Shown: positions 16,344 to 62,805 of the stretch, in pieces
How positions within the stretch are numbered: position 1 is the first letter of the stretch
How the letters are laid out: every line of letters starts with the position of its first letter
DNA from: Parcubacteria group bacterium Gr01-1014_31
GTDB lineage: Bacteria > Patescibacteriota > Patescibacteriia > Buchananbacterales > GWA2-38-13
DNA length: 64,000 nucleotides
NCBI GenBank assembly: GCA_007376135.1
Contig: VMFR01000004.1
Location: 21,745-85,744 of the forward strand
Reading direction: 5' to 3'
The notes under the pieces: model-generated
Told to the model about the DNA's origin: nothing
Seen by the model: the letters and a program-made list of their open reading frames with translations, nothing else
The model's database searches: none
Program-made: the position numbers and the translations under genes

Positions 16344-16364
16344 AGAAAAGAGGGAATTAAAAAA

Positions 16365-16774: not shown

Positions 16775-16860
16775 GGAGAGGGTGGGATTCGAACCCACGA
16801 GGGACTTTCATCCCCAACGCCTTAGCACGGCGCCGCTTTCGACCGCTCAGCCACCTCTCC
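16774..16860 (-). tRNA. tRNA-Ser (anticodon GCT)
   Basis: GGAGAGGTGGCTGAGCGGTCGAAAGCGGCGCCGTGCTAAGGCGTTGGGGATGAAAGTCCCTCGTGGGTTCGAATCCCACCCTCTCCG has anticodon loop GTGCTAA, a long variable arm and T-loop TTCGAAT. Confidence 0.8.
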
Positions 16861-31822: not shown

Positions 31823-31835
31823 GGTTGACAGTTCA

Positions 31836-38800: not shown

Positions 38801-41800
38801 GCTGCCCCGCCCCTCGCCGCCGCGTGCCACCTCGTCAAGATTGGTGAACTGCTCACAGCCGGCAAAACGAGCCTCGCACGAACGGGCCGTGTCCGCGATG
38901 AAATACAGGAAGTCGGGCTGCCGCGCGGATGGGACCGCATCGGCAAAGAACGTCTCCGTCTGCGAAAACGCGCTGTAGTCCACGCACGCGGCCGGGCACA
39001 TATCGCCCGCCGTCGTGATACCCGGCAACGGCGGTTCGCCGTTGGTCGGCGTGTAGCGTTCGCACCCGACCTCGTCGGCGCGGCAGACCTGGCTGTAACG
39101 GCTGCACGCCGAGTGGTCGGTCTGCGGGTCGCCGGTACACCCAAGGTACGCGGGCGACGTTTTCAGATGCACCACGGGGTTGCTGATGAAGTCCCGGTAC
39201 GCCAACGCCGCGGGCTCCGCGCGCGGAGCGACCTCGACGATGTGCACTCCGTCCACGGCAATGTCGCTGGCCGCGGTCGAACCAAAGCGGAGACGGAATT
39301 CACGATGGCCGCTCGGTGCCGCCATCGGCTCGAAGAGGAAACGCTGCCATTCCGCGGTCAGCGGCAGCGGGCTGTGGCAGCTGCCTGCCCCCGCCGTAGT
39401 GCAATCCGCCTCGCGCCGGCAGGCCGGATTGGCGCCACCGTCGCACACCCCCAACCCGTCCGCGATCAATTCCAGACTGCGCGCCGTACCGCCGCTATCC
39501 ACGCTGTCCAGCCACGCCCGCCAGGTGACATTCGCGGTATTGGCCTTGGCGAAAAATGATACCTGGTAGGTCGCGCCGGATTTCAGGAGCGGCAAGGCGG
39601 CGGTGCGAAAATCTTCCGACGTGGCGTCACTGTCGGTGTAGTGCAGGTACGTACTGCCGAATGCCGCGCCTTCCGTTTCGCGCGCCACGATGTCGCCGGC
39701 GGTGTCCCCGCCATGCCGTTCCCAATTTGGCGGGAAACGGCTCGACGGGTCTGGCCACTGCTCAAAACTAGAATTGTAGATGAAATTAACCAAGCCCTGG
39801 GTGGCCGGGATGAGCGCGCGGCAGCCGCTTTCCTCCTGGCTGCAGGCGGCAATATCGCGGTCGAAGTAGAGCTTGCTGCCGTCGGCATCCTGGGTGCCTT
39901 CAAGGTAGACGGTCACATCCTGCAACGGACAAGCGCGCTCCAGCCGGACCTCATCGAACCAGACGGTTCCCACCGGATTAATGCCCGCGACGGCCTCCAC
40001 CACCATCCGCACGCGCCCGCCCGCCAGCGGATCGGAAGTGGTGCAGCTGACGGTTGCCCACTGCCCCTTGGCATAATCCGCGTCGATGGTACTGCAACCC
40101 CCGCTCGAGGACGGCACCACCTCAACGTAGGCACGGCCGAACTGTAGCGTGCTATAAATGCGCGCCGTCAAGGTGTAGGGCGGGTTCGCGGTCGGTGGCA
40201 CGGAAAGCGGATCGGATTGCGCGACCATCTGCGCAACGGTGCCGTCGGGATCGATCCGCACGGCGTAGTTGCCGACCGCCACTTGGTTGTTGACGCCGGC
40301 GATCCGTTGCCAACGGCTGCCGCCGCCGACCACGTCGTTGGTCGACCAACTGGCCGCGAAGATGACGCGGCCCGCCTGCACGCTCAAGTCGGCGCTCTCG
40401 GTCTCAAATCCGCTGTTGTCGGCAAAACTTTCCGCGGCCCCGCAGCGCGGTACCGTGCAAGCGACCGCCCCGTAGGGGATCTGACAACTGATACCCGTTG
40501 CTACGTCAGTCGCCAGGCAACTCGCCCCCTGGCAGGTTTCTCCGCGCGGGCATTCGGCGTCCTGGGCGCAGGAGCGGCCGCTCACGCTGCAGCGCCCCAG
40601 CTGCTGGCACGGTTTACGCACGCGCTCGGCTTCGCCGACGCACGACCACACCCCCGAACCCACATTGAAATCACGGCAGTACCACTGGCACCCGACGGCA
40701 TTGGCATCGCAGCCGCCGGCATCCAACGTGTCGCCGAGGTAGCTGACCGCGCGGTTGGCGTCATCCTCGTAGCTCCGGCAGCTGTCGTACTGCGGCGGAC
40801 ACTGGGTCCCGGCGAATTTCCAGACCGGGGTCTCCTGAGTGCACAGACCGTAGGCGCGACAGGTGCCGTTCGCATCCTCCACGATGCAGGATCGCGTATC
40901 GGTGCAGGTATTTTCGCGGGACACGGTCCGGCGTTCGAACTGGTAGCTGGGCAGCTGCCCCGTCAACGGGTCGGCGGGCTTGTTGCGCTGCACGATCGTC
41001 TCTTCGCGCGAGTAGACGCTGGTAAATTTATCCCCGGGCCCGGTCAGCCGGCAGTAGGTCTCGGGGGCCTTGAGCACCCAGCCGTCATCCACCAGCCCGT
41101 AGAACGGCGAATCGGGGTTACCGAAAGCGCGGATGATATCGTTGAGCGAGTAGGCCTGCCGCTGCTCCAGTTGGCCGATATACGCGGCCGCCAACTCCCA
41201 ACCGACGGGCAGGATGCGGTACTTGCGCAGAATGACGAATGACGAGTGCGCGTACCCATCATTGGCGGTCGGCTGCGTGCCCGCGCGCGTGTAGCCGAAG
41301 GTCGAACCCGGACCATCGGCGAACAACAATCCTTCCTGGATCGCCTGGCGCACCGTCAGTTTGCGGTCAATGGCCGTCTTGAATGATTGGTTGATAACGC
41401 CGTCGCCGACCAGGAGCGAGGTCACGTCCATTCGATTGAGGCGAGGGTCGCCAATGGCGAGGTTGGTGGAAAAGAACGCCTCAAAATCCTGGCGCGCGTC
41501 GGTCCGCAGTGCATTGGGGTCGGCGGTCGGCGAACGCAGACCCTCCAATTTGCTCCAGTTGAACTTATCCGGCTTGCTGCTGCCGCCGCCAAATCCCTTA
41601 GTGTACAGCCGCTGCAGCATCTTGGATACCAGCGTGGAGGTGAACGCGTCCACCGCATCAGCCACGGCCTCGCCGGTATACGTGAAGTAGACGTCACCCA
41701 GCGTACCGGGGGAAAGCGCATCGGCAGACCACTCCTTAACCAGCGACCCAGGCGTCAAAATATTTCCGGCGATGTCCACCACGGGCTTCAGCCCCTGGCT

Positions 41801-42589
41801 TTCCAGCCGGCTTAAGATCTGCTCCTCGTGGGCCTCGGCCTGCTTGGAGTAGAAGCTCGACCATACTCCGATGCCGATGCCAAAGTCATTCTGGTTGGGC
41901 GAGAACGAATCATGGATGATCTGGTCGAGCTTGGGCGGATTGTCGATGAACTGCTCCCAGTTGTCAGCCAGCTGTGTGAACGTACACGATGGTTCCGCCG
42001 GCGGCTGCGCGGCGTCCAAAAGCCCCAGGGACAGCTTTAACTTCAGGTCAAGCCGCGGCCGGCAGAGGTTGGGCAGCCCGACGCCTTCAGCGAACGACTG
42101 GATGAAGTGTCCGGCGGCCGAATCGCCGACGCGCGACAGGTACGCACCCCAGCCTTCCGTTTCATACAACGGCTTTTTTCCTTTACCACCCTCAGCTAAT
42201 TGCGTCGCCGTATCCACGGCCAGCCGCCGCAGAAAATAGCTCAAGGCGTTCTTATAGGCTACGGCCGCGGCGGTCTTCGCATACTTCTCCGCATTTTTTT
42301 TGATCCACTCCCAAACTTGCTGGAACAGATTCGGCTCGTCGCGATTATCCACTTCCTGGCCGGTGCGCGGCTGCGTTGGCGGGCTATCAAAGGAGCCGCC
42401 ATCACCGCTAAAAGTTGCCTCCCCGCCGCCATCAAAAGACCCGGCCCCGAAGCTTCCTTGGGCGAACGCAACCGGAGCAAGCGTGAAACTCTGAAGAGTA
42501 AACAGCGCAAGTAGCGACGCAGCACACCATTTCCGCCAGCGCAGGGCGCGACGGCGCGACGATCGAACCGAATATACCATCAGTCTCAT
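32843..42589 (-). CDS. Giant (3,248 aa) cysteine-rich secreted or surface protein
   Basis: ATG at 42589 overlaps the upstream stop (ATGA). N-terminal signal peptide (LLALFTLQSFTLAPVAFAQG). Hundreds of Cys residues in CxxC / C-x(n)-C patterns throughout, Gly/Thr/Asp-rich, no TM beyond the signal. Confidence 0.7.
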   Translation of the reverse strand: MRLMVYSVRSSRRRALRWRKWCAASLLALFTLQSFTLAPVAFAQGSFGAGSFDGGGEATFSGDGGSFDSPPTQPRTGQEVDNRDEPNLFQQVWEWIKKNAEKYAKTAAAVAYKNALSYFLRRLAVDTATQLAEGGKGKKPLYETEGWGAYLSRVGDSAAGHFIQSFAEGVGLPNLCRPRLDLKLKLSLGLLDAAQPPAEPSCTFTQLADNWEQFIDNPPKLDQIIHDSFSPNQNDFGIGIGVWSSFYSKQAEAHEEQILSRLESQGLKPVVDIAGNILTPGSLVKEWSADALSPGTLGDVYFTYTGEAVADAVDAFTSTLVSKMLQRLYTKGFGGGSSKPDKFNWSKLEGLRSPTADPNALRTDARQDFEAFFSTNLAIGDPRLNRMDVTSLLVGDGVINQSFKTAIDRKLTVRQAIQEGLLFADGPGSTFGYTRAGTQPTANDGYAHSSFVILRKYRILPVGWELAAAYIGQLEQRQAYSLNDIIRAFGNPDSPFYGLVDDGWVLKAPETYCRLTGPGDKFTSVYSREETIVQRNKPADPLTGQLPSYQFERRTVSRENTCTDTRSCIVEDANGTCRAYGLCTQETPVWKFAGTQCPPQYDSCRSYEDDANRAVSYLGDTLDAGGCDANAVGCQWYCRDFNVGSGVWSCVGEAERVRKPCQQLGRCSVSGRSCAQDAECPRGETCQGASCLATDVATGISCQIPYGAVACTVPRCGAAESFADNSGFETESADLSVQAGRVIFAASWSTNDVVGGGSRWQRIAGVNNQVAVGNYAVRIDPDGTVAQMVAQSDPLSVPPTANPPYTLTARIYSTLQFGRAYVEVVPSSSGGCSTIDADYAKGQWATVSCTTSDPLAGGRVRMVVEAVAGINPVGTVWFDEVRLERACPLQDVTVYLEGTQDADGSKLYFDRDIAACSQEESGCRALIPATQGLVNFIYNSSFEQWPDPSSRFPPNWERHGGDTAGDIVARETEGAAFGSTYLHYTDSDATSEDFRTAALPLLKSGATYQVSFFAKANTANVTWRAWLDSVDSGGTARSLELIADGLGVCDGGANPACRREADCTTAGAGSCHSPLPLTAEWQRFLFEPMAAPSGHREFRLRFGSTAASDIAVDGVHIVEVAPRAEPAALAYRDFISNPVVHLKTSPAYLGCTGDPQTDHSACSRYSQVCRADEVGCERYTPTNGEPPLPGITTAGDMCPAACVDYSAFSQTETFFADAVPSARQPDFLYFIADTARSCEARFAGCEQFTNLDEVARGGEGRGSYTYLRQCTKPDANVCRTYYTWVGSEVNGYQLKSYTLRRDVADRVPAVSGGTVGDTDEPDWVDAFLDLGQCATALDAVINPNCREFHATNGNVYYRLLRETVSCSDECHPFRLIDSSQGACEGSGGYWGVCGDDTDTDGDIDAPLANCLAQGGMQLVGGSDCFMHQDDCVGIGGQEFEPRNECIYQAVPNESIACPAAQSGCREYRGNAGGNLRTVWYDDFEDGDTLGWMVGSISSDAVTIGGHSIAGTTMETMRQATVCSNALPACVAGSTADCFDASTEPDTCRLFNTGQECRAKNLELGCGFLRERLVPGRNYQLTFWAKAQTGIVTVNVNMLGVDCGQDGTSCELKNNLRVLTDWEEYTTEPILVTSVNPVATLRLTTAGGTPVAVDFVSLTEVQEYSYLVKNSWRTPLICDTDPTLDPVRFPAPNSPQFALGCQEYTTSKGQVTYLKSFERLCRDSSVGCEEFVDTKNSTSALAEPFNVGHAQAEVTVPADTLAYYVRDLSKECAAAAEGCQAFGLPVQDARGQISGYQTRYLVNDPERYGVSLCTEDQVGCREYVSPQVGTVYFRDPGARTCEYKQIPHRQDFGWFITGSTSSVPDCPAITTRFGQTQPGKTCQGGDLEGQVCTSDADCSFKVCRGGGTFEGARCDSNIDCGTGVCETSGGDCRTWVGQCPAEYASCTAYVDPMSDPQAGMLPNSNFEGFFRVCSHDAQTVCRLDTDCSAASGGLRFCADGTLCSGPVDCGGEACELSVCSASKLNSWNLAGSPADHQRGEGVNRSSAVRVTAPTPAGTEVRQSLGLNGGTLYTVTASVKNSARDASIVVTTVDGSKRPIFTQFDHSVAIFSNGVLATRGDTVVLPVGGVTESTFRRFTGRFFVLESDRAVTVKIVNAGTYDDVDLKPTGVYHYLADSIERSSCNGVYDPAQGCVLVNDTSDPTLKYSTTATVAGQPPSVCQPQQCVGGTRPGAGCTSDGDCGAGGICRPGTCDSNLLVKVAPDRTCARWLDCISSRKQVSFRTGQVQEFCQQIATCDRLDSISGRCSSYPTEELQALTFDAGSVQLSQFFSGYAKVGFQWDADTKVDGYFPYGVMTQRKVCVAGNRGAACLEDADCHTGDERDGVCQPVLQVGTNPTEDLIFESCRVYPSGSAPRWTAQAPVDTGDEPAKSQIVDINDPLTDPLTGSLLSQTSLAEASECHYVQGRSEFLGLYGFCVEKDPRSPYLCLNWLPVDELTGGWVGITGWRGNLRASTFMCNESVILETRRPGRFELNHCYQTDFGWWGMFNPIGAIAETAANHAERNSMTCGTVSCPPGYLPEQRRSKCGNFFEPGIRCRWYCTPDQSDLYLTDTESNQWYDYKAREDASDRPTKKHLMFCPKCGATGLVLWDPEDPTTIFGFNSEEQRRVPTYWQRACHEVVQVVDEDGAQRGWQERLETVQDFLSADYQVPTLNYKVSDLAAPFGVIGRNFVGDPTKWPLVSDRVQAADFGHPYEYPGDQAGQVYFDHFYDRWSAAAGRLPNDSVEVASFHTARERLKRLFATSYGDWRWNGSAYETYTVPTNYCAGGPRSGDSCAPGSNDCVDSTSVCVKSGGYCAYYPTGEPENAETALNITCTSDTACAGNPKIFCATGRCGSFGDGNDLNDSEVPCRTTADCPGGGSETCDITGFIYGRCDDASPTYPLRGVACFNDEMCNTKSDGSGVGTCVGEDPDGQAPANGTYGYCSAGVNVLGACQNIGDCWNPAAHQASCVGQCSAGSAKNPGTCITDVECQVSGSCQETTAWRPPADRCRDNIRPSRFTETPLTDPDGSGDWCGVSPEVFNVKIENAEAPIFYIVGQGNVTLSFNVKVDNDQLPLRLLRVRWDMENRDTMVTDNDWRSGLRDKSDPADPFQFTHTYKYVQTTCDKGVLPGGSGTPDGYCDFQVGVLVRDNWCWCSNAIFADVNTTNLACNTCPDDGTPAIADDNNGAWVEARSALVRVCDSARPELCGR

Positions 42590-46536: not shown

Positions 46537-47529
46537 CTAGCGGTGAACGAATGCCGCCGCCCGACGAATGGATCGAAACAACGCGTACTCCCAGGGACGC
46601 ACCGGCAGCTCCCAAAGACCGCTGTAGCTGGTGAAGGCCGTCTCCGGAGCAAACCCCTGCTTGAAGCGGGTGATGCCGGCCCACGCCGCATTGGTCAAAG
46701 AAACGCCGCCGAAATTATAGGCACGGCATTTTTTTCTCTGCGCCAAAGCGATTCCCTCGGCGTGCAGCGCATACGGCGCCATCAATTCCTGCTGCGAATC
46801 CGTGCTGCCGCCATGCAGAAAGGTGAGCACGCCGTTGAATTCCGCCAGCATTGCGCACGCCAGCACGATATCGCTTCCGTAGGCTGTTAACAGGTGAACT
46901 TCGGGGAGGGTACGGGCAATTTCCAGGTAATAACGCCGGGGGTGCGGCCGGATGCCCTGGCGGACAGCGGTCGCGGAAAGCAGCCGCCAAAAATCCTCAA
47001 AGATTGCTCCGTCCGGGACAACGGACTGTACGCGTATGCCGTGGCGCTGGGCGAGACGGATATTGTAGCGGGTCTTCTGCTTCATGGCGGACAGCAGGAC
47101 ATCCATGGGTTTATGCACGTCGATGATCAACTCTTCGTGGGGCTGTACAGCTCCCGCCACTGAAGAAAAACCGGGAGCCGACCACGGGAGTGTTGCCGGG
47201 GCGTCCACGCGCACAAAAACCGCGCCGGCGCGGCTGGCAACACCGTGAATCCCGGCGACCAGCGCTGCTGACGCCTGACCGGAGGAACAGGGTCGAGGGC
47301 AGTACCAGTAGCGACGGTGGAACGGTAAAGCGTGCTCAAACAGCTGCCAACCGGCAACCAAACGGCCGTTCTCCAGCTGCGCCGCGTGGCGCACCGGCCG
47401 GTGGTAAGCGCGCTGCACTTCTCCCCACCCGAACGACTGGAGCAGTCCTCCATCGGGGCCGGCATTGGACGCGACGTACTGGTCCCAGGCCGCGCGATCG
47501 GAGAAATCGGCGACGAATTCCTTGGACAT
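46537..47529 (-). CDS. FemAB-family peptidyltransferase (peptidoglycan interpeptide bridge formation)
   Basis: FemAB-like core ...HLLTAYGSDIVLACAMLAEFNGVLTFLHGGS...ELMAPYALHAEGIALAQRKKCRAYNFGGVS. Start chosen at the ATG at 47529, after the upstream stop at 47538. Confidence 0.75.
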   Translation of the reverse strand: MSKEFVADFSDRAAWDQYVASNAGPDGGLLQSFGWGEVQRAYHRPVRHAAQLENGRLVAGWQLFEHALPFHRRYWYCPRPCSSGQASAALVAGIHGVASRAGAVFVRVDAPATLPWSAPGFSSVAGAVQPHEELIIDVHKPMDVLLSAMKQKTRYNIRLAQRHGIRVQSVVPDGAIFEDFWRLLSATAVRQGIRPHPRRYYLEIARTLPEVHLLTAYGSDIVLACAMLAEFNGVLTFLHGGSTDSQQELMAPYALHAEGIALAQRKKCRAYNFGGVSLTNAAWAGITRFKQGFAPETAFTSYSGLWELPVRPWEYALFRSIRRAAAFVHR

Positions 47530-47537
47530 AGGCAGCC

Positions 47538-49265
47538 TTACGGCAGCTTCCCCCGCAGCGTGCCGATAGGAATTTTCTCCAATGTGGCGGTGGTCGCCCC
47601 CAGACTGCGGTACCGCATCAGCCAGTAGGCCGCATCGCCGTCCCGCAGATAGTACCGATGGCCATCCGCGGGATTGAGGTACCACGCCTCGCCGGATTCA
47701 TCGACCGACAGCAGGATATGGCCGGATAAACGCTTGACCAGCGCCGCGTCGCCGCGGTCATCGGTGCCGGCGCGCGGAATTTCAGCCAGGTCTGCCGCGC
47801 TCACGCCAAGGCTCAGGTACCGCATCGCGGCATAGGCGATCTTCCCGTTGCGGAGGTAGTAGCGCTCCCCGCGCGTCGGGTGCACCCACCAGGCTTCCCC
47901 GCGCCGGTCCACCTGCAGGAGGATCTTGCCGGCCACGCGCTGGACCAGCCGGCGGTCGATGGTACGGGCGGTCGGCGGCCGCAACGGGTCGTACCCCGCG
48001 GCCACCTCCTGTCCGTCATCATAGCTGTCGTAGTCGGTGTCCGGATCGCCCGGGTCGGTCCCGTACTGTAGTTCATCGTAGTTTCGCAACCGATCGTGGT
48101 CGGGGTCCATGCGCTTGAGCAGTTCTTCGCCGCGCACTGTCAGCACGCTGCCGCGGGCGAAACCCGCAAGCGCGCTGGCCGGAACCAGCAGAATATCATC
48201 GCCGGAGAGGCCCAGCTCCTCGGGGGTGACGGTACTCTCGAGCGGCAAAAGGCTTCCGCCCTCCACCAGAAAAATGGTGCCGCTGCCATCGGTCACCAGG
48301 CTGCCGTCCGACGGCGGTGGCAAGAGCGCTGCGGAAACGACGGCGGACGCGCTGCTATTGGCCGCATGGTCGTAGGTGAACGCGGCGTACGTGTAGGTCG
48401 TGCCGGCCGCAACCGCGGCATCCGCGGTACTCGTCCCGAGGCCAATGAACACGGAGGTACCGTCCGTCGGGCTCGAGGGCGTGCTGCCGCTGGCGCGAAC
48501 GATCGCGACGCGCACGATCCCGGGGTCTGAAGGCATGGTCCATCGCAGGGTGATGTCCCCGTACCCCGACACGGCGTAAAAATCGGCGACGGACGCTGGT
48601 GGGGTCTCATCGGACGCCGTTCCCTGCCCATCGGGAGTGCTGGCCTCCGGCGGCAACGTTTGCGTCGAAATGACCGAGGACTGGGCGACCACGCTGCCGG
48701 CAGCGTCAATGACGCGTACCCCAAAATAATACGTCGTTGCCGGTTGCAGGCCGATGGCCGTGTACGTTTCTTGCGCCCCCGGAAACCCGGGCGATGGCGC
48801 CCCGGACAGAAAAGTCGCGCTGTCCATGGATGCCGCATCAAGCGGCGTTGCCGAACTGCGCAGATCGTAGCGGTAGGTCACGCCGGGAAGCACCGGGAAT
48901 TGTGCGGCGGTCCACCGCAGATCCACGGAAACGGCCCGGACCGTCGCCGCCGTGAGGTCCGTGATGACCGCCACGGACGGCGAGATACAGGATTGCTCGT
49001 CGATATTCGCATCACAGTTATCATCGACGGCGTTGCCGCAGCGCTCCAACAGCTGGGGGGATACGAACGGATTGCCGTCGTCGCAATCACCTTGTGCCGC
49101 GGTCACCCCATCCCCATCCCCGTCGCTGGCGGTCGTCTGGGTCGGGTTGCCGCAAGTCAAAATATCCGGCGGGCACAGCGGTGGCAATGCCCACGCGGTC
49201 AGTGCGAACGACGCGATGGCGCCCGCGCCTGCCACCGCCGCCAGCTTCCGTCCGGCAAACCTCAT
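47538..49265 (-). CDS. Secreted protein with an N-terminal Cys/Asp-rich putative metal-binding motif, FN3-like domains and a duplicated C-terminal ~45-aa repeat
   Basis: Signal peptide. DGDGDGVTAAQGDCDDGNP...CGNAVDDNCDANIDEQ resembles the DCDDxNxxxxPG...CDGxDNDC motif. The C-terminal repeats ILLQVDRRGEAWWVHPTRGERYYLRNGKIAYAAMRYLSLGVSAADLAEIP and ILLSVDESGEAWYLNPADGHRYYLRDGDAAYWLMRYRSLGATTATLEKIP are near-identical. The ATG overlaps the leuS stop (ATGA). Confidence 0.6.
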   Translation of the reverse strand: MRFAGRKLAAVAGAGAIASFALTAWALPPLCPPDILTCGNPTQTTASDGDGDGVTAAQGDCDDGNPFVSPQLLERCGNAVDDNCDANIDEQSCISPSVAVITDLTAATVRAVSVDLRWTAAQFPVLPGVTYRYDLRSSATPLDAASMDSATFLSGAPSPGFPGAQETYTAIGLQPATTYYFGVRVIDAAGSVVAQSSVISTQTLPPEASTPDGQGTASDETPPASVADFYAVSGYGDITLRWTMPSDPGIVRVAIVRASGSTPSSPTDGTSVFIGLGTSTADAAVAAGTTYTYAAFTYDHAANSSASAVVSAALLPPPSDGSLVTDGSGTIFLVEGGSLLPLESTVTPEELGLSGDDILLVPASALAGFARGSVLTVRGEELLKRMDPDHDRLRNYDELQYGTDPGDPDTDYDSYDDGQEVAAGYDPLRPPTARTIDRRLVQRVAGKILLQVDRRGEAWWVHPTRGERYYLRNGKIAYAAMRYLSLGVSAADLAEIPRAGTDDRGDAALVKRLSGHILLSVDESGEAWYLNPADGHRYYLRDGDAAYWLMRYRSLGATTATLEKIPIGTLRGKLP

Positions 49266-51823
49266 GACGTCACAAAATTTATCAGCCGGTCGGGCACGAA
49301 TACCACTCGCACCGCGGCCGCTGGCGCCAGATGGCGCTGAATATTGGGCAGTTGCCGCGCCTGGACGACGGCTTCCGTCTCACCGGTGCCGGCGGGCAGA
49401 ACAAGCCGGTCGCGCACCCGGCCGTTGACCTGCACCACGACGGTGACCGCGGCGGCCTGCGCTTTTGCCGCTTCATACCGCGGCCAGGATTGCGCAAAAA
49501 TACTGCCGCGGTGAGCGCGGTCGCAGCCTTTGTGTCCAAGCGTCTCCCACAATTCCTCCGCGAGATGCGGCGCGAACGGGGAAAGCAGCAGCAGGTATGC
49601 TTCCAATTGGGACAGGCTGGCGCGCTGCGCCTGCTGGCGGGCAGCCGACAGCGCGTTCCGCGCGATCATCAGCGCAGCTACCGCGGTATTGAACCGCATG
49701 GCTTCAATGTCCTCGCTGATCTTGAGTACCGCCGTCTGCAGCGCCTGATCAAGGTCGGGCGCTTCCGGGAGTTTGGCGGCCGACATCCACCAGGCAACGT
49801 ACTCCGCCACGCCGTCCAGGAACCGCTTCACGCCGATGATGCCCTTGGTGTCCCACGGCGACGGCTGGTCGAACGGCCCGATGAACATCTCGTAGACGCG
49901 CAAAACGTCCGCCCCGTACTCCGCGATGACCGCGTCGGGGTTGACGACGTTGCCGCGCGATTTCGACATTTTTTCGCCGCCCTCGCCCAGAATGAGCCCG
50001 TGGGACGTGCGCTTCTTGTACGGCTCGGGACCGCACTCCGGAGGAACGGCGCCGATGTCCCACAGGAATTTATAAATGAAGCGCGAATATAATAAGTGCA
50101 AAGTTGTGTGTTCCATGCCGCCGTTGTACCAATCCACCGGCAGCCAATACCGAAGCTTGGCGGGATCGGCTAACAGCTCGCCGTTCTCCGGGTCGGTATA
50201 CCGCAAGAAATACCAGTTGCTGCCCGCCCAATTCGGCATGACGTCGGTCTCGCGCCGCGCAGGCCCGCCGCACTGTGGACAGGTCGCCGCCACCCACTTG
50301 CCCACGGCCGCCAACGGCGATTCCCCGTTCGCGGTCGGCTCATACCGCTTCACTTTGGGCAACTCCAAGGGGAGCTGGTCTTCGGAAATCGGCACGACCG
50401 TGTGCTCGCGCCCGTCGAGCACCACCATATGGACGCCCGGCGTATTCTCGCCGCTCGCCAGCCGGCGGTTGCGGCACTCATCGGAATGGCAGTAGACCAG
50501 CGGTATCGGCTCTCCCCAGTAGCGCTGCCGGGAGAACACCCAATCGCGCAATTTATAGGTAATGGCCCGCTTGCCCACGCCCCGGTACTCGAGCCACGCG
50601 GTGATCTTGGGAACCGCTTCGGTGACGCTCAACCCGTTGAACTGGGTAGAGTTGATGATCGTTCCTCCCTGCGTGGCGACGTAGGCCGCCGTCAACGGCG
50701 CCCCATTCCCCGCGGGGTTAGCGACCACGGGAACGATCGGCAGCCGGTAGGCGCGGGCAAATTCGAAATCACGCTGATCGTGCGCGGGGACGGCCATGAT
50801 CGCGCCGGTCCCGTAGCTGGACAGCACGTAGTCGGCGACATAAATCGGGATCTCTTTCCCGGTCGCGGGGTTGACGGCAGAAAGCCCATCCAGACAAACG
50901 CCGGTCTTCGACTTAGCCAGGTCCGTGCGCTCCAGGTCCGACTTGCTCCGCGCGGCCTGCACGTAGCGCTGAACCTCGTCCAGATTCTTCAACAGTGCCG
51001 CGTGCTGAGAGATGAGCCCATGCTCGGGGGCGACCACCATAAAGGTGGCGCCGAAAATGGTATCGGGCCGCGTCGTGAAGACCGTCAACGCGCCGGAGGG
51101 CGTGGCGCCATTCACGCGCATCGGGAAGGTGATCTCCGCACCCTCGGAACGACCGATCCAGTTCAACTGCGACTGCCGCACCCGCTCGGGGTAATCCACG
51201 AGCTGCAGGTCATCGATCAGCCGCTGGGCGTAGACGGTGATTCGCAGGAGCCACTGGGCCTTCGTACGCTTCGACACCGGTCCTCCGCACCGCTCGCAAC
51301 GCCCATCCACGACCTCCTCATTGGCCAGCCCGATCGTGCAATGCTCGCACCAGTTGATCGGGATCTCGGCGCGGTAGGCCAGGCCGCGGCGATAGAGCTG
51401 CAAAAAGATCCACTGGGTCCAGCGGTAGTACTCCGGCTCGGTGGTGGCAAACGCGCGCGTCCAATCGAACGACAGCCCAAGCGCTTTGAGCTGCCGCATG
51501 AAATTCTTGATATTGGCGGCCGTCGTGACGGCCGGATGGGTTTTGGTCTTAATCGCATAATTCTCCGCGGGCAGACCGAACGAGTCAAAACCGATGGGGA
51601 AGAGTACGTTGACCCCCTCCATCCGCCGCTTGCGGCAGATGATGTCCATCGCGGTGTACGACCGCGGATGCCCAACGTGCAGGCCTTCGCCGGACGGATA
51701 GGGGAACTCGACCAGGGCGTAAAACTTTGGCCGCGGATCAAAATCAGCGGCTTGGTCAAGTTTCCCGGCAGCCCAACGCTTTTGCCATTTGCGTTCGGTC
51801 TTTTGTGGGTTTACGCGCCGCAT
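49262..51823 (-). CDS. leuS: Leucine--tRNA ligase
   Basis: HIGH motif (HVGHPRSY), KMSKS motif ([12 protein letters not shown]), 853 aa, canonical N-terminus [17 protein letters not shown]. Confidence 0.95.
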
Positions 51824-56055: not shown

Positions 56056-57075
56056 TCACTGTACCCCGGTGACGATACCGGCATCACAAGGCCACACCGA
56101 GGGCTGCATTCTCTGAGCCTCCACACAGGTACCGATATAGGTATTCCAACGAAGCCCGTACTGGGATATCGATCGCGGATCGTACCATGAATAAAAATAG
56201 CTCTCGCAACTTTCCTGCTCGTTCCCAGTTGGTATTCGGAAACATTTTTGCCGCCCATAGAAAGAAGCGACCAGATCCGAAGCGCCGAACACATCCGTCT
56301 TGTCATTGGTTATTCCACAGCACGACTGGTTGTAAGGACCCAGCGAAATAACGCTCTGTGGGGTAGAATTGGCACCCTGGCAGGACCCATAATAATGCAT
56401 CTGGCTCATCGGTTTATTCCACTTCATATGGGTGGCCTGGCTCAGGAGAAATGGACTTGTACAACTGAAAGAATGCTGGGCATTGAACACACTAGCACCG
56501 TAGGTTCCCGCACCTGCCAACTGGCCGCAGACCATATTTTCGCAATTCTCAGGGGCACACGCCCCAATAACCCCTTGATCGGCAAACCCGGTAAAGCAAC
56601 AGCAGCCCGCATCGGCCAGCCCGGTCGGCCGCTTGGGCTGGATGGGTTGGAACACCACCAGCGCTGGGTTCACCGTTTGTAAAATAACGAACGAGGTCAT
56701 CGCCACCACCAGCCCGGTCAGCGCCGAGGTGATGTAGCTTTTGGCGTTCTCCACCCGCGAGGGGTTCCCGCCGGCGATGACCCATAAAAATCCGCCCACC
56801 ATCATCATGAAAATCGTCAAAAAAATGGACAGCCAGATGCCAAACCGGTAAATGGCCACCACGTAGTTACCCAGCAGGTTGGCGTTCACCACCTTATTGC
56901 CCTGGATCGCTCGGGCCTGCTCTGAACTGCCGGGAATTTGGACCTGGGCGTTGTAATTCAGCACCGGCGCGGATGCTTGCTGCCCCAGCGCGATGGCAGG
57001 CACCACGACCGCGACCAGCACCGCGACCAGCAGCACGGCGCGGATAACGACGGATGTTCTTTCTTTGGACAACAT
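56056..57075 (-). CDS. Exported protein with VirB2/TrbC-pilin-like topology (signal peptide, then two TM helices) fused to a ~190-aa cysteine-rich C-terminal domain
   Basis: Signal VLLVAVLVAVVVPAIALGQQA. TM1 GIWLSIFLTIFMMMVGGFLWVIA, loop GGNPSRVENAKSYI, TM2 TSALTGLVVAMTSFVILQTV. The C-terminal region contains a CCCF triplet and ~20 further Cys residues. Confidence 0.5.
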   Translation of the reverse strand: MLSKERTSVVIRAVLLVAVLVAVVVPAIALGQQASAPVLNYNAQVQIPGSSEQARAIQGNKVVNANLLGNYVVAIYRFGIWLSIFLTIFMMMVGGFLWVIAGGNPSRVENAKSYITSALTGLVVAMTSFVILQTVNPALVVFQPIQPKRPTGLADAGCCCFTGFADQGVIGACAPENCENMVCGQLAGAGTYGASVFNAQHSFSCTSPFLLSQATHMKWNKPMSQMHYYGSCQGANSTPQSVISLGPYNQSCCGITNDKTDVFGASDLVASFYGRQKCFRIPTGNEQESCESYFYSWYDPRSISQYGLRWNTYIGTCVEAQRMQPSVWPCDAGIVTGVQ

Positions 57076-58386: not shown

Positions 58387-60354
58387 GTGCGTACCCTGAT
58401 CGCGTCGCTCCGCTGGCGGGTAAAAACCGCCTGGCACCGACTGACTGCCGCGCGGCGAAATCCGCCGGGGGTGGACGCTGCTGCCGCGCCTTCCGGCGTC
58501 GATTTGGACCAACAATTGGTGACCAAACTGTCGCGGCCGCAACGATTGACCCTAAGCCATCTTCGCCACCTGCCGCGGCTGCTCAACTCCCGGGAACGCC
58601 GTCAGGTCAACGCCTTGCTGATCCTCGCCCTCATCAGCTTGGCCTACTTGGGCTACCGCTGGTACGGACGCAACGTGGTCCAAATCCCGCTCCACCGGGG
58701 CAGTTATACGGAGGCGTTGGTGGGCGCACCGCAGTACCTTAACCCGCTGCTCCTCTCCACCAACGACGTCGACGCGGACATCGCGAGCCTATTGTTTGCC
58801 GGCTTGTTCCGCTACGACCGCCGCCTCACCCCGGTACCCGACCTAGCGGAAAGTTATACGACCAGCGAAGACGGCACTCGCTACGTCGTCAAACTCAAAC
58901 CCAACCTCCGCTGGCATGACGGCAACCCCGTCACCGCCGACGATGTCGTGTTCACCTTCACGAGCGCGCAGCTCCCCGAATTCAATAGCGCCCTGCGCCA
59001 CAGCCTGAGCGGCGTGAAGGTGAGCACAACCGGCGAACGCGAGGTCACATTCCAACTGCCGGAACGGCATGAACGATTCCTCGATCTGCTGACGACCGGG
59101 CTTTTGCCCGAGCACCTCTGGGGAGAGATCCCGCCGATCCACGCCACCCTCAACGAGTACAATCTGAACAATCCGATCGGCGCGGGCGCCTGGCGGTTCA
59201 AATCACTGACCAAGGACCGCCACGGCAACATCAAATCATACACCCTGGTGCCGTTCATCGATGCGGCGGGATCCAAACCCTACCTGCAGGAGATCACGTT
59301 CAAATTTTACGCCGACTACACCGACGCAGTGGCCGCGTTGAATAACCGTTCCGTGGATGGCGTCGGGTTCCTCCCCGTGAAAGAGGAAGGCGCGATCACC
59401 GATCCGCAGGTGAAGCGCTACCCCTTGGCCCTGCCGCAGTATACGGCGATCTTTTTCAACCCGAACGAGCAACCCGCGCTGAAGGAAAAGAATATTCGCC
59501 TGGCGCTCGCGCATGCGGTCGACCGGGCCAAGATCCTCAGCGAGGCGTTGAACCTGCGCGGCGAACCGGCCATTGGACCGCTCCTGCCGACCGCCCCGGG
59601 GTTCGACCCGGACCTCAAAGCGCCGGCCTACGACCAGGCCGCGGCGGCGCAGCTCTTGGATGACGCGGGATGGACGCGCCTGGAAAGTTCGGCCTACCGC
59701 GAACTGCTCGCGGCGACCAGCACCGCGACCACCACCCCCGCCACGGCGCCATCGGATACCACCACGACCGCGGCGGCGCCCGAAACCGCGAAAGAAGCAA
59801 CCGACCCCCAGCCCTATTACCGCCGTAACAAGGCCGGGACCATCCTGGAACTTGCGCTCACGACCGTCGACCGTCCCGAGAACGTTTCGGTGAGCGAGCT
59901 GGTTGCCAACGCCTGGCGCGCCATTGGCGTCAAGGTAGTGGTCAACCTCGTGCCGCCGCGACTGATCGCCCGCGAGGTCCTCAAACCGCGCGCCTACCAG
60001 GCGTTACTGTACGGCGAGGCGATCGGCGCCGACCCCGATCCGTACCCGTTCTGGCACTCGTCGCAAGCGGCCGACCCGGGGCTGAATCTCGCGCTGTTTG
60101 CCAACCGCCAGGCCGACAAGCTGCTGGAGGAAGCGCGGGCGGCCAGCGACAGCGAGGGTCGGGCGCTGAAATACCGAGAATTCGCCAATCTCATTGCCGC
60201 GGAAACGCCAGCCGTCTTCCTCTACATCCCGAATGCCACTTACGCGCTCCACGGAAAAATCAAAGGATTCACCATCAAACAAATTCTGCTGCCGCAGGAC
60301 CGGTTTCTCAACCTCCCCGAATGGTATGTAGCGACCGGCCGGCGCCTTCGCTAG
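58387..60354 (+). CDS. ABC transporter substrate-binding protein, family 5 (peptide/nickel type), N-terminally membrane-anchored
   Basis: 655 aa. GTG start at 58387. TM RQVNALLILALISLAYLGY. The SBP_bac_5-like core spans ~400 aa (LRWHDGNPVTADDVVFTF... through ...DPDPYPFWHSSQA). Confidence 0.7.
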   Translation: MRTLIASLRWRVKTAWHRLTAARRNPPGVDAAAAPSGVDLDQQLVTKLSRPQRLTLSHLRHLPRLLNSRERRQVNALLILALISLAYLGYRWYGRNVVQIPLHRGSYTEALVGAPQYLNPLLLSTNDVDADIASLLFAGLFRYDRRLTPVPDLAESYTTSEDGTRYVVKLKPNLRWHDGNPVTADDVVFTFTSAQLPEFNSALRHSLSGVKVSTTGEREVTFQLPERHERFLDLLTTGLLPEHLWGEIPPIHATLNEYNLNNPIGAGAWRFKSLTKDRHGNIKSYTLVPFIDAAGSKPYLQEITFKFYADYTDAVAALNNRSVDGVGFLPVKEEGAITDPQVKRYPLALPQYTAIFFNPNEQPALKEKNIRLALAHAVDRAKILSEALNLRGEPAIGPLLPTAPGFDPDLKAPAYDQAAAAQLLDDAGWTRLESSAYRELLAATSTATTTPATAPSDTTTTAAAPETAKEATDPQPYYRRNKAGTILELALTTVDRPENVSVSELVANAWRAIGVKVVVNLVPPRLIAREVLKPRAYQALLYGEAIGADPDPYPFWHSSQAADPGLNLALFANRQADKLLEEARAASDSEGRALKYREFANLIAAETPAVFLYIPNATYALHGKIKGFTIKQILLPQDRFLNLPEWYVATGRRLR

Positions 60355-60394
60355 CTGCGGAGGCGGAGGGACAACACGATGACGTCCTTTCAAA

Positions 60395-60783
60395 TTTCTG
60401 CTGCAGAACCGCGACGATTCAGCCCGGGTGGTAGAATTGGTAGATTCACCCCACACCTTTAGCCCCTTCAAAAAATATCCGACGCACAATTAGTAAATCA
60501 TCAAGCCGCGGTGGTGGAATTGGTAGACACGCATGGTTCAGGGCCATGTGATCGCAAGGTCGTGAGAGTTCGAGTCTCTCCCGCGGCAATTATCGTTGGA
60601 TATCGTCATGATAGGGGCTAAAGGTGTGGGGCAAGCGTCCCGCCAACGGCGGGATGATCGCAAGGTCGTGAGAGTTTCCCGCCACCGAGATTCCCCACAT
60701 TAATGGACGGCGGGACCCCGCCAACGGCGGTGGCGAGTCTCTCCCCGGGCATATCCCAACTTCTGCAGCAGAAATTTGAAAGG
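60395..60783 (+). repeat. Inverted-repeat-bounded tRNA cassette: 24-bp perfect outer inverted repeats and ~19-bp inner inverted repeats enclose tRNA-Leu(CAG), which is nested inside a split tRNA-Leu-like pseudogene
   Basis: Outer repeats are tcctttcaaatttctgctgcagaa (60395-60418) and ttctgcagcagaaatttgaaagga (60760-60783). Inner repeats are ccccacacctttagcccct (60446-60464) and aggggctaaaggtgtgggg (60612-60630). There is a pseudo 5' half GCCCGGGTGGTAGAATTGGTAGATTCACC (60420-60448) and pseudo 3' pieces gatcgcaaggtcgtgagagtt (60655-60675) and cgagtctctccccgggca (60734-60751). Confidence 0.6.
60505..60588 (+). tRNA. tRNA-Leu (anticodon CAG)
   Basis: GCCGCGGTGGTGGAATTGGTAGACACGCATGGTTCAGGGCCATGTGATCGCAAGGTCGTGAGAGTTCGAGTCTCTCCCGCGGCA has anticodon loop TTCAGGG, a long variable arm and T-loop TTCGAGT. 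Confidence 0.85.
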
Positions 60784-60996
60784 AAATCACAACCTCGCAG
60801 CACGCACGGCACGATCGGCGCATGCGGAGTACCGTCGTGCCCGCCCTCCTGACGTTAGCGCACCGGGCGACCTCGATCCGCGCGCTCCTCATCCCGCCAC
60901 CCTCACTTTATCTCGTCGGCGCTTTGACGCCGGCACGCTCACCCGACAATTAATCAATCCGAATACTTCGAGGCGATTTCGCCTCGCCAAACCGTT

Positions 60997-62805
60997 ATGG
61001 TTGTCAAACACACACCGGCGCGTCCTGACGTAACGTCAGGAGCGCGTCCATCGTCGTCGCGGCCTCCGCGGCGGCGCGATCGCCGTCCTTCCCGCCCCGT
61101 GGCGGTCAGTGCGGCACCACACCCGAAAATCGCTCCCGTTGCCAGCGATACGCTGCGCATCATCCCCCTCGGCGGCCAGGAAGAGGTCGGCCGCAACTGC
61201 ACCGTATTCGAATACGGTAACGACATCATCGTGCTGGACATGGGGTTGCAGTTCCCCGAGGAAGACATGCCGGGGATCGACTACATCATCCCCAACATGA
61301 ACTACCTGAAGGGGAAAGAGCGCAACATCCGCGCCGTCATCCTCAGCCATGGCCACCTCGACCACATCGGCGCCGCCCCTCACCTCCTGCCCCAGCTGGG
61401 CTGGCCGCCGGTCTACGCCAGCAAACTGACGCTGGCGCTGGTGCGCAAACGCCTCGAGGAATCCCATCTGACCCAGCAACTCAAGGCCCACGAGATCAAA
61501 TCCAGCCGCGAGCAGTTCCAATTCGGTAAGCTGCGCGTGAATTTTTTCGATGTTACCCACTCCATCATGGACGCGATGGGCGTCGTAGTCAGCACGCCCG
61601 ACCTGTCGGTCATCCACATGGGCGACTGGCGCTATGACCTGGACCCGGTGGAGGGCCGTCCCACCGACTTCTCGGCGCTGGCCCGCTGGAACACCAAGCA
61701 GCGACCCAGTCTCCTAATGATGGAAAGCCTCGGTTCGACCAAAGAAGGCCACCAAGGCTCCGAACGCGAGGTCTTTGAAACCATCCGCCGCATCGTGACC
61801 AACGCCAAAGGCCGCGTCATCATCGGCACGTTCTCCTCGATGCTGGAGCGCGTCGGACAGATCATCCGCATTGCGGAGGAAACCGGTCGCAAAGTCGCGC
61901 TCGACGGCTTCTCGATGAAGACCAACGTCGAGATCGGCAAACGCATCGGTTACCTGCGCTTCCGCCCGCAGACGCTCATCGACATTTCCCGCATCCACGA
62001 CTACCCGAAGAATCGGGTGGTAGTGATCTGCACGGGCGCCCAGGGCGAGGACCGGGCGGTGCTGATGCGCATTGCCACCGGCGAACACCGCCACGTCAAG
62101 GTGGAACCGCAGGACACCATCGTCTTTTCCTCTTCCATCATCCCGGGCAACGAGCGCACCATCCAGCGCCTCAAGGATACGCTCTACCGCCAAGGCGCCG
62201 AGGTCTACCACAAGGAGATCATGGACGTGCACGCCGGCGGCCATGCGTTCATCGAGGACATCAAACTGTTGCTGCGACAGGTCAACCCCACCTACCTGAC
62301 GCCGGTGTACGCCAACCACTACCTGCTGCGCGAGGCGACCAAGGTTGCCAAGTCGATCGGTTTCCCCGAAGAGCATATCTTCCTACTGGATAACGGCTCG
62401 ATCCTCGAGATCCGCGGCAACCGCTTGCGGGTGCTGCCCGAAAAGGTGCCGACCAACTACGTCTTTGTCGACGGGCTGGGCGTGGGCGACGTATCGCACG
62501 TCGTGCTGCGCGACCGCCAGATGATGGCGGAGGACGGCATGATCGTGGTCATCGCCACCATCGACGAACGCCGCGGCCGGCTGGTGCACAATCCCGATCT
62601 CATCTCCCGCGGGTTCGTCCACATGAAGGAAAACCGCAAGCTCATCGAGCAGACGCGCGCCAAGGTCAAGCAGATATTTGCGGGCAACCTCAAGGAAATG
62701 GACGAGAATTTCTACCGGGACAAGATCCGCAATGAGGTCGGCGAATTCCTCTACCAAAAAACGCAGCGCCGCCCGATGGTCCTCCCGGTCATCATCCAGG
62801 TGTAA
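60997..62805 (+). CDS. rnj: Ribonuclease J (metallo-beta-lactamase / beta-CASP)
   Basis: IIPLGGQEEVGRNCTVFEYGNDIIVLDMGLQFPE and HGHLDHIG motifs, beta-CASP and C-terminal domain. The annotated ATG at 60997 adds a ~55-aa Arg/Pro/Ser-rich extension containing a 13-bp palindrome, so the true start may be downstream (e.g. GTG ~61100). Confidence 0.85.
   Translation: MVVKHTPARPDVTSGARPSSSRPPRRRDRRPSRPVAVSAAPHPKIAPVASDTLRIIPLGGQEEVGRNCTVFEYGNDIIVLDMGLQFPEEDMPGIDYIIPNMNYLKGKERNIRAVILSHGHLDHIGAAPHLLPQLGWPPVYASKLTLALVRKRLEESHLTQQLKAHEIKSSREQFQFGKLRVNFFDVTHSIMDAMGVVVSTPDLSVIHMGDWRYDLDPVEGRPTDFSALARWNTKQRPSLLMMESLGSTKEGHQGSEREVFETIRRIVTNAKGRVIIGTFSSMLERVGQIIRIAEETGRKVALDGFSMKTNVEIGKRIGYLRFRPQTLIDISRIHDYPKNRVVVICTGAQGEDRAVLMRIATGEHRHVKVEPQDTIVFSSSIIPGNERTIQRLKDTLYRQGAEVYHKEIMDVHAGGHAFIEDIKLLLRQVNPTYLTPVYANHYLLREATKVAKSIGFPEEHIFLLDNGSILEIRGNRLRVLPEKVPTNYVFVDGLGVGDVSHVVLRDRQMMAEDGMIVVIATIDERRGRLVHNPDLISRGFVHMKENRKLIEQTRAKVKQIFAGNLKEMDENFYRDKIRNEVGEFLYQKTQRRPMVLPVIIQV

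Follow-up and report, generated by a model that had tools for sequence, protein, structure and literature searches.

The stretch of DNA analysed here (the window) comprises 64,000 nt of contig VMFR01000004.1 of Parcubacteria group bacterium Gr01-1014_31, and between its SBP_bac_5 gene (58387-60354) and its RNase J gene (60997-62805) lies a complete tRNA-Leu(CAG) gene enclosed by the separated parts of a second, apparently older copy. We called tRNA genes with ARAGORN and with the Rfam tRNA model RF00005 (gathering score 29), and the sole tRNA called in this intergenic region is the inner one at 60505-60588 (51.8 bits). This gene has the features of a class II tRNA-Leu: a 7-nt anticodon loop, TTCAGGG, with U33, a variable arm of sequence TGATCGCAAGGTCGTG, and a 3'-terminal A. 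Judged by these features, it is a canonical bacterial tRNA gene and should be functional. The nested structure is not an assembly artefact, because analogous loci are found in independent assemblies (ENA, NCBI, JGI, and Logan); altogether, the nested state occurs for two tRNA identities in at least eight independent assemblies.

A sequence-only reading of the window had proposed that the intact tRNA-Leu(CAG) sits inside a split tRNA-Leu-like gene, and three matching pieces around it bear this out. We compared the local-alignment scores of these pieces with those of 200 shuffles of the intergenic region: the pieces score 32, 44, and 26, the best shuffle scores 22, and the middle piece has an E value of 2.5e-7 within the window. 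Aligned to the inner tRNA, the 5' piece is 88% identical over 24 nt (60421-60444), the middle piece 22/22 (60655-60676), and the 3' piece 89% over 18 nt (60734-60751). All three are collinear and on the same strand as the inner tRNA, and their order is not permuted. The 5' half had been placed at 60420-60448; a piece of the old gene does lie there, with a matching extent of 60422-60444. The 3' half was correctly located at 60655-60751, where the middle and 3' pieces are found, and the ~60-bp insert said to split its T-arm proves to be 57 nt long (60677-60733). The outer acceptor strands, GCCCGGG and CCCGGGC, pair perfectly and differ from the inner ones (GCCGCGG and CCGCGGC) by two compensated pairs. 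The middle piece also carries a lineage-specific T (GATC vs GACC in the outgroups), which, together with the 22/22 identity of the variable arm, points to gene conversion or to a recent common origin of the two copies.

The anticodon-arm site of the old copy is occupied by TCCCGCCAACGGCGGGA: over exactly its 17 nt it is filled by a 17-nt hairpin, whose loop CCAACGG offers neither U33 nor a Leu anticodon. The T-loop insertion consists of two hairpins of the same family (TCCCGCC...GGCGGGA at 60677-60715 and CCCCGCCAACGGCGGTGG at 60716-60733), and 3' of it the old copy resumes as CGAGT-CTCT-CCCCGGGC-A. The covariance model proposed as a check on the two halves did not recognise them: the outer pieces give no partial tRNA match in Rfam even at E ≤ 10. 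At this threshold, both nested loci of the window returned the inner tRNAs only, with no intron, transfer-messenger RNA (tmRNA), or other family, and at the gathering threshold the window and seven further loci returned tRNAs only. Splicing the outer copy in silico (60422-60448, 60632-60676, and 60734-60751) produced a sequence in which ARAGORN calls no tRNA. As far as its sequence can tell, the old tRNA-Leu copy is a non-decoding shell.

The shell is bracketed by a perfect 24-bp inverted repeat that had been noticed before at 60395-60418 and 60760-60783; the repeat is real, and its arms lie at 60385-60408 and 60761-60784. The extended arms measure 29 nt at 93% complementarity, with 13 nt between the left arm and the old 5' piece and 9 nt between the old 3' end and the right arm. 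We read the left arm as the leader half of the leader/trailer repeat that belonged to the old tRNA-Leu. Further copies had been suggested as a test of this repeat. The window holds the two perfect arms only (0.00 expected), and a degenerate counterpart surrounds the same shell in the relative L027 (12/24 and 15/24 identical).

Within the shell, the inner gene forms the centre of a unit of ~190 nt, which we call the cassette. It is bounded by CCCCACACCTTT... on the left and ...AAAGGTGTGGGG-CAAG on the right, and the core CCCCACACCTTT is also present at a tRNA-Arg locus of the window and in relatives. Its ends form a perfect inverted repeat (19/19; chance expectation 0.01); the sequence-only reading had recognised this repeat at 60446-60464 and 60612-60630, and it actually occupies 60449-60467 and 60613-60631. 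In the predicted fold, a part of the left spacer (ATATCCGACG) pairs with CGTTGGATAT of the right spacer. From its sequence the left spacer (60468-60504) is a possible promoter region, a consensus promoter scan detected no promoter in it, and consensus promoter and terminator scans of both nested loci returned nothing usable; to take TTGCCC-N17-TACTCT upstream of the tRNA-Arg as a promoter would be an unsupported guess. Open reading frames (ORFs) overlapping the nested Leu region have no Pfam match. In L008, a called gene of 138 aa spans the nested tRNA region, with no Pfam hit on record.

Folding had been proposed as a further check, and it supports a long stem: as RNA, the 410-nt unit has a predicted energy of -197 kcal/mol (z = -10.9 vs 100 shuffles) and is modelled as a cloverleaf at the tip of a long stem, all of it enclosed by a second junction of cloverleaf-like shape. 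The leader/trailer duplex has z = -8.5 at the Leu locus and -5.8 at the Arg locus, and such pairing is also seen around plain tRNAs of the clade, including the outgroups. By this modelling, the long stems may be leader/trailer processing duplexes in the precursor, as a further proposal of the sequence-only reading had it.

Searching the window for the 17-nt hairpin and the repeat core led to the second nested locus, in which an inner tRNA-Arg(GCG) is enclosed by an old tRNA-Arg and the inner gene alone scores as a tRNA (Table 1). In tRNA sense, the old Arg copy reads GCGCCCG-TA-..., takes in a GC hairpin in the D region, and goes on with GAGC-G and the 17-nt hairpin; the cassette arms are CTTG and CCCCACACCTTTTT before the tRNA and AAAAAGGTGTGGGG after it. 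The acceptor stem of the inner tRNA-Arg is extended where its leader pairs with its trailer, over 14 bp as we read it and over ~13 pairs by the duplex fold, and the locus has a predicted folding energy of -167 kcal/mol for 301 nt. The Leu and Arg cassettes of the window have common termini, CCCCACACCTTT and AAAGGTGTGGGGCAAGC, and a nearby 17-nt hairpin, and nothing in common in their interiors. The sequence AAAGGTGTGGGGCAAGC is exactly common to the Leu right terminus and to 13682-13698 of the Arg locus, and exact copies of the hairpin occur in the window at 13708-13724 and 60638-60654 only.

Two relatives also have a nested tRNA-Arg, L006 (a metagenome-assembled genome from GTDB) and L016 (JGI). 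In all three nested Arg loci (window, L006, and L016), the hairpin takes the corresponding place in the old tRNA-Arg, and its sequence is identical (17/17). Between the window and L006, where nucleotide identity around the locus is ~89-91%, the hairpin and repeat arms are 100% identical, the spacers 94-100%, and the outer Arg 3' piece 76%. In L016, the junction reads ...ATAGG-CTTG, then the cassette, then TTCGAGCCCTGCCGGGCGC.

For the tRNA-Leu locus, we compared the relatives L008, L009, L010, L027, and L020, with L021 and L023 as outgroups. The gene order SecG, SBP_bac_5, tRNA-Leu(CAG), RNase J is kept in all of them, its SecG end being cut off in L027. RNase J identity to the window is 89% for L008, 81% for L009, 78% for L010, 80% for L027, 79% for L020, and 68-69% for L021 and L023. 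The tRNA-Leu is nested in L008, L009, L010, and L027. L020 has no recognisable shell and keeps an inner-type tRNA-Leu, and the outgroups have a plain tRNA-Leu with only a 10-14-bp leader/trailer repeat around it.

The nested Leu loci differ in the position of the cassette within the old copy: in L027 it lies in the D-loop (between GTGGAAC and TAGACACG), in the window and L008 it follows GGTAGA, and in L009 and L010 it separates positions 28 and 29 of the anticodon stem (between CACGTA and TGGTTCA). The repeat variant CCCTCCCAACTTTTTCC/GGAAAAAGTTGGGAGGG (L007-type) is found in L027 only, with the CCCCACACC type elsewhere. In every lineage, the distal cassette stem has a different sequence and has kept its complementarity, giving helices of 16-27 bp. 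The flanking tetranucleotides are CTTG...TGAA in L027 and the Arg loci and the reverse complement, TTCA...CAAG, in the window; the tRNA has the orientation of the old copy in every nested case. Acceptor alleles are distributed across these positions: GCCGCGG is inner in the window, L008, L009, and L020; GCCCAGG is inner in L027, yet belongs to the 5' part of the old copy in L008 and L009; and GCCCGGG is outer in the window and L027. L027 additionally has a third, older tRNA-Leu remnant downstream (score 36 vs a shuffle 95th percentile of 21), which corresponds to tRNA positions 27-38 and 37-64 and is interrupted by an element whose target duplication is TTCA. The pattern at the Leu locus is best read, from these alleles and junctions, as several successive replacements and not as one frozen structure.

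Old tRNA-Leu copies of the relatives have also received an element of ~100 nt (105 nt in L009 and L010) with 15-bp terminal inverted repeats, CCCGTTAGACAATGG. Its target duplications are the 6-bp GTAGAC in the old D-loop (L009 and L010) and TTCA in the anticodon loop (L027). Unlike the tRNA cassette, this element behaves as a true miniature inverted-repeat transposable element (MITE).

Table 1. Coordinates of the nested tRNA loci and of related elements (window positions unless a locus handle is given).
Feature	Position	Strand	Remarks
Left arm of outer 24-bp perfect inverted repeat, TCCTTTCAAATTTCTGCTGCAGAA	60385-60408	.	extends to 60380 at 93% complementarity
5' piece of old tRNA-Leu: acceptor 5' strand GCCCGGG, TG, D-stem/loop GTAGAATTGGTAGA (G12->A)	60422-60444	+	
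TTCA junction and left arm of inner 19-bp inverted repeat, CCCCACACCTTTAGCCCCT	60445-60467	+	left cassette terminus
Left cassette spacer	60468-60504	+	37 nt, AT-rich; sequence and predicted fold
Inner tRNA-Leu(CAG)	60505-60588	+	class II, long variable arm, discriminator A, no encoded CCA; ARAGORN, Rfam
Right cassette spacer	60589-60612	+	24 nt; 4% identical to corresponding L027 spacer
Right arm of inner inverted repeat, AGGGGCTAAAGGTGTGGGG, and CAAG	60613-60635	+	right cassette terminus
CG (old positions 25-26) and 17-nt hairpin TCCCGCC-AAC-GGCGGGA	60636-60654	+	hairpin itself 60638-60654
Middle piece of old tRNA-Leu: variable arm, T-stem 5' strand, TT of T-loop	60655-60676	+	identical to inner tRNA (22/22)
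T-loop insertion, 57 nt, two hairpins	60677-60733	+	between T55 and C56 of old copy
3' piece of old tRNA-Leu: T-loop remainder, T-stem 3' strand, acceptor 3' strand CCCGGGC, discriminator A	60734-60751	+	
Right arm of outer 24-bp perfect inverted repeat	60761-60784	.	trailer of old copy; extends to 60789
Nested tRNA-Arg locus	13497-13780	-	same architecture as Leu locus
Arg: leader repeat and old tRNA-Arg 5' piece	13767 down to 13725	-	GC-hairpin insertion in D region
Arg: 17-nt hairpin	13708-13724	-	replaces 17-nt anticodon arm
Arg: old variable loop and T-stem 5' strand	13698-13707	-	
Arg: CTTG and repeat arm	13680-13697	-	
Inner tRNA-Arg(GCG)	13574-13647	-	Rfam 68.7 bits; spacers on both sides
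Arg: second repeat arm	13529-13542	-	
Arg: old T-loop, T-stem 3' strand, acceptor 3' strand, then trailer repeat	13508-13528	-	
Element with 15-bp terminal inverted repeats	L009 3495-3592; L010 2846-2945; L027 1592-1683		
Palindrome copies without tRNA	L013 858-920, 1875-2037; L014 70-231; L015 2774-2939; L017 528-703; L018 4128-4303		

On balance, we lean towards the view that a resident tRNA gene has been replaced repeatedly through the insertion of an inverted-repeat-bounded tRNA cassette, the outer gene being the relic shell. The process would start with an older tRNA-Leu that had its own 24-bp leader/trailer inverted repeat. A cassette of ~190 nt, consisting of the inverted repeat, short spacers, and a complete tRNA-Leu(CAG), would enter the D-arm/anticodon-stem region of the old gene, probably arriving as a unit and inserting without target duplication, and decoding would be taken over by its tRNA. 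Most tRNA genes of a small-genome lineage are expected to be single-copy. Insertion into such an essential gene would presumably be tolerated only if a functional gene for that tRNA comes with the cassette, and this would explain the constant match between shell and cargo identity. Older shells would then gather palindromic insertions. The long stems would be the cassette termini, and they may also serve precursor processing or stability. As to how the cassette enters, we speculate on single-strand or structure-directed insertion, or on recombination after DNA uptake, which would fit the hairpin ends and the lack of a target duplication. The same process would have acted on tRNA-Arg(GCG) in the window genome and repeatedly at tRNA-Leu in related Parcubacteria. 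Junctions abut the cassette without loss or duplication in the Arg locus of L016 and the Leu locus of L009 (CACGTA, cassette, TGGTTCA), and signs of shell decay are visible in the loss of the outer 3' half in L008 and L009 and in the further element in the D-loop of L009 and L010. We hold much more tentatively to a narrower and rather doubtful proposal, that self-complementing cassettes, each a complete tRNA between inverted repeats, are specific for the resident gene of their own tRNA, where they insert and take over its function, leaving concentric shells that are maybe kept as structured non-decoding scaffolds with a GC hairpin at the anticodon-arm site.

Several observations weigh against insertional replacement. 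Scanning the ~40 ORFs of the window against Pfam (E ≤ 1e-5) revealed no transposase, integrase, other recombinase, or HUH-nuclease domain, and no cassette was seen outside a cognate tRNA locus; for these two reasons, we infer cassette mobility and have not observed it. A relic is expected to decay, and yet the shells of the window and L027 agree at 15/17 positions of the 17-nt hairpin, 17/17 of the T-loop insert stems (10/10 and 7/7), and 18/18 of the 3' piece. The low-identity parts of the same comparison are the insert loop (41%) and the spacers (4-22%). As a neutral yardstick for shell decay, we used the four-fold sites of RNase J, which are 58% identical between the window and L027 (random expectation 42%). 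This stem-specific conservation has one of three explanations: structural selection, site-specific insertions of one hairpin family that occurred in parallel, or lineages exchanging the locus. Random decay provides no explanation for finding the same 17-nt hairpin, in the Leu and Arg shells alike, exactly where the 17-nt anticodon arm should be. The shell of the window resembles that of L027 and not that of L008, its sister by RNase J, and the history of the locus therefore needs losses or horizontal exchange. Finally, the 22/22 variable arm fits local duplication or gene conversion equally well.

Structural selection could extend to the whole locus, which would then be a selected precursor or scaffold whose shell and stems function as RNA (a platform for processing, a shield against exonucleases, or a protein-binding site) or as folded single-stranded DNA; whatever its origin, the shell would then be no relic. 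The identities just described speak for it (88-100% for shell stems and 3' piece, 4-41% for loops and spacers, 58% at four-fold sites), as do the invariant hairpin of the three Arg loci, the distal cassette repeats that change between lineages yet stay complementary, the outer acceptor pairing preserved through compensated changes, and a predicted fold with z = -10.9 in a clade where leader/trailer pairing is common around tRNAs (z down to -8.5). However, the inner tRNA is kept where the outer 3' half is missing (L008 and L009) or the shell is absent (L020), and the outer Arg 3' piece changes more quickly than the sequence around it. Selection on the sense RNA gains no support from stem mismatches that are often A-C and not G-U on the sense strand (L008, L009, and L010), nor from the hairpin loop, whose orientation with respect to tRNA sense is opposite in the Leu and Arg shells. 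We rate such a scaffold as unlikely, though a serious competitor. We give a far smaller chance to the idea, also raised by the sequence-only reading, that the old copy still works as an intron-containing, split, or permuted tRNA, its inserts, the inner tRNA among them, being removed from the transcript. The insert sites (D-arm and T-loop) and long helices do recall non-canonical archaeal tRNA introns, and the outer acceptor pairing is perfect; but the outer copy has no anticodon arm, the loop of its hairpin has neither U33 nor a Leu anticodon, ARAGORN calls no tRNA in the spliced sequence, and Rfam matches no group I, group II, or other intron family. Moreover, the helices run on unbroken across the predicted junctions and form no bulge-helix-bulge motif, the locus belongs to a bacterium, relatives lack the outer 3' half, and the pieces stand in unpermuted order, all of which makes this reading hardly credible.

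Two further histories would dispense with a mobile tRNA cassette, and we consider both improbable, to a similar degree. The outer pieces could be leftovers of integrase-mediated integrations (attachment-site, or att, duplications), the 5' and 3' pieces stemming from separate events and the elements being mostly deleted since. Events of this kind are suggested by tRNA-Ser 3' fragments in the window at 14354-14432 (beside a DUF4238 islet) and 16364-16379 (beside a GIY-YIG gene), by L023 with two extra 3'-end copies downstream of its tRNA-Leu, and by the Arg-locus break at the T-loop. The T-loop is reportedly a known integrase crossover site. At the nested loci, though, the 5' and 3' pieces meet exactly at one point and form one complete gene with no mutual repeat, the ends of the insert are inverted and not direct repeats, and a full tRNA is carried instead of a 3' part; the 64-kb window has no tyrosine or serine recombinase gene, and the Leu insertion points (D-loop, D-stem, and anticodon stem) are not usual crossover sites. 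The alternative is a local nested duplication without any mobile unit, produced by replication or repair errors at palindromes and followed by palindromic insertions and gene conversion. This agrees with the 22/22 match of inner and outer variable arms, the closeness of all alleles, and the lack of a mobility enzyme in the window. Known palindrome-driven errors, however, yield inverted and not direct nested duplications, the same repeat termini are found at two unrelated tRNA loci and in other genomes, and the differing insertion points, polarities, and alleles at orthologous loci would need several independent events.

Among the explanations offered by the sequence-only reading, a MITE-like element carrying a tRNA comes closest to the evidence: there is a repeat-bounded unit with the sole functional tRNA, and the same core recurs at the Arg locus; what does not fit is the missing target-site duplication and the unshared interiors. 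The cassette has terminal inverted repeats (19-bp, perfect), a small size (~190 nt), and no ORF. Its flanks show no target-site duplication (TTCA and CAAG-CG in the window, CGTA and TGG in L009, CGAA and CCTAT in L016), and the two copies in 64 kb have similar termini only, with no similar interiors and no transposase in the window that would point to an autonomous relative. Bacterial small palindromic repeats include MITEs, repetitive extragenic palindromes and bacterial interspersed mosaic elements (REP/BIME), Correia elements, and Rickettsia palindromic elements. Like these, the cassettes are short and ORF-less, have inverted-repeat or hairpin ends, sit inside genes, and can be nested (L015 and L017); unlike them, they share termini only, make no target duplication, occupy two loci in 64 kb, and carry the matching tRNA as cargo. 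The high dispersed copy number of REP and Correia elements is not found in the 64 kb, where the core occurs five times and the hairpin at the two tRNA loci only.

Other comparisons capture parts of the design. Leader/trailer stems of rRNA operons, with their embedded tRNAs, are RNase III substrates. The nested loci likewise have long perfect duplexes formed by the complementary 5' and 3' flanks of a stable RNA, but their stems also mark insertion boundaries in an older gene copy, and cleavage here is a prediction. The tRNA-like domain of tmRNA, including its two-piece form, resembles the shell in that acceptor and T-arm halves without an anticodon arm enclose a large insert; the shell differs by having no Rfam match, no tag frame, a Leu or Arg type instead of an Ala identity, and a canonical tRNA as the insert. 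Integrative elements reportedly insert into tRNA genes and rebuild the target with a tRNA segment of their own, producing an att duplication. The likeness is that a tRNA is the target, the incoming DNA preserves its function, and the displaced old fragment stays; remnants of att type are present at both tRNA-Ser genes of the window and in L023. The nested locus, by contrast, carries a complete tRNA, is enclosed by old 5' and 3' parts, measures ~190 nt, and has an inverted repeat and no integrase in the window, whereas the att mechanism leaves direct repeats and not an enclosing gene. By analogy, an integrase-type island carrying a tRNA 3' segment is the closest bacterial precedent.

The closest published case that we found is the tRNA-Thr(GGU) locus of Caldiarchaeum subterraneum, where an old 5' fragment is followed by a 1.8-kb recombinase-encoding element and a complete newer copy (Sugahara et al. 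2012, PMC3293823). As in the nested loci, an older 5' fragment lies upstream of a complete newer copy with inserted DNA in between; in contrast, the host is an archaeon, the newer tRNA has spliceable introns, and there is neither an enclosing 3' fragment nor an inverted-repeat stem (PMC3293823). Archaeal multi-intron, split, and permuted tRNAs (PMC4090602 and PMC3978253) are similar in their non-canonical interruptions (D-arm and T-loop) and in the long helices that unite the parts. Compared with these bulge-helix-bulge-dependent tRNAs, the nested loci have no such motif and no outer anticodon, belong to a bacterium, contain a complete tRNA as the insert, and have lost the outer gene in relatives. 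We found no description of nested bacterial tRNA genes in the published literature, which is weak evidence of absence. We conclude that the nested tRNA design is real, recurrent, and, as far as we found, apparently undescribed; if the cassette reading is true, homing-like or selfish replacement of a tRNA gene would be undescribed in bacteria.

The repeat core also occurs apart from tRNAs. Scanning metagenomes with two repeat cores gave eight matches: one is the nested Arg locus of L016, five (L013, L014, L015, L017, and L018) are palindromes without an enclosed tRNA, and two (L011 and L012) resemble chance matches, L012 lying within protein-coding-like sequence. A scan of genome collections with the shared module gave six matches, five of them chance matches in unrelated taxa and one (L006) informative, and scans of viral contigs gave no match. 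In unrelated, mostly low-GC contigs resembling the candidate phyla radiation (CPR), CCCCACACCTTT and AAAGGTGTGGGG form solo, tandem, or nested hairpins around non-tRNA sequence; these palindromes often adjoin TTTAC or GTTTAC, and Rfam detects no known RNA family within the pairs. Four of the five CCCCACACC cores in the 64 kb are at the two tRNA loci. The fifth, at 10174 on the + strand inside ORF 9025-10377 (KaiC/Lon_C-like domains), is probably a chance occurrence. We rejected CCCCACACC as a DNA-uptake sequence, its density in the window being far too low.

L019 and L024-L026 have no tRNA upstream of RNase J, owing to a different context or a contig end. L024, L025, and L026, three independent assemblies, share one end point (their position 1), which lies 626 nt upstream of RNase J, and L024 has a ~100-nt repeat at both 1-140 and ~4860-4940. 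An exact copy of the 17-nt hairpin, then TGATCG, follows a Wzy_C-family gene at 4788-4804 of L024; with a copy so placed, the hairpin might be a general terminator.

Further observations concern the neighbourhood. A low-GC (47%) islet at 14354-15929 contains a DUF4238 ORF (14516-15613, - strand) between the tRNA-Ser 3' fragment 14354-14432 and the intact tRNA-Ser(TGA) 15841-15929; a further pseudo-copy, which begins in the anticodon loop and includes the 3' end, lies at ~15700-15790. The close relative L006 does not have the DUF4238 ORF. A GIY-YIG nuclease ORF (16412-16735, - strand, Pfam E = 1e-15), the sole nuclease-like mobile gene in the window, has a 16-nt copy of the 3' end of tRNA-Ser(GCT) on one side (16364-16379) and the intact tRNA gene on the other (16774-16860). 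L006 lacks it too, and its tRNA-Ser genes are 513 nt apart vs 845 nt. In the Kerfeldbacteria-like outgroup L023, the extra partial tRNA-Leu(CAG) 3'-end copies (2684-2704 and 2786-2811) are a classical T-loop insertion signature. Genes for a FemAB-family protein (an aminoacyl-tRNA-dependent transferase) and leucyl-tRNA synthetase, at 46537-47685 and 49262-51823, lie 9-14 kb upstream of the nested tRNA-Leu. Two very large ORFs on the - strand, 24077-31846 (2589 aa) and 32843-42589 (3248 aa), adjoin type IV secretion-like genes (TraG P-loop 18285-20252, PrgI 21072-21509, and a type IV secretion system pilin-like gene 56056-57075).

Genes for tRNAs are usually seen as passive landing sites for mobile DNA; at these loci, the insert itself comprises a full copy of the tRNA whose gene it interrupts, a pattern that recurs for at least two tRNA identities in a small-genome lineage. 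Should the shells be under selection, they would represent a new kind of structured element of tRNA origin. Mobile cassettes, if such they are, would allow horizontal replacement of essential RNA genes without loss of function and would contribute to tRNA allele turnover and to breaks in the assembly of CPR genomes. Whichever reading holds, the shells will escape annotation pipelines, and ORFs can be called across such loci, an example being L008.

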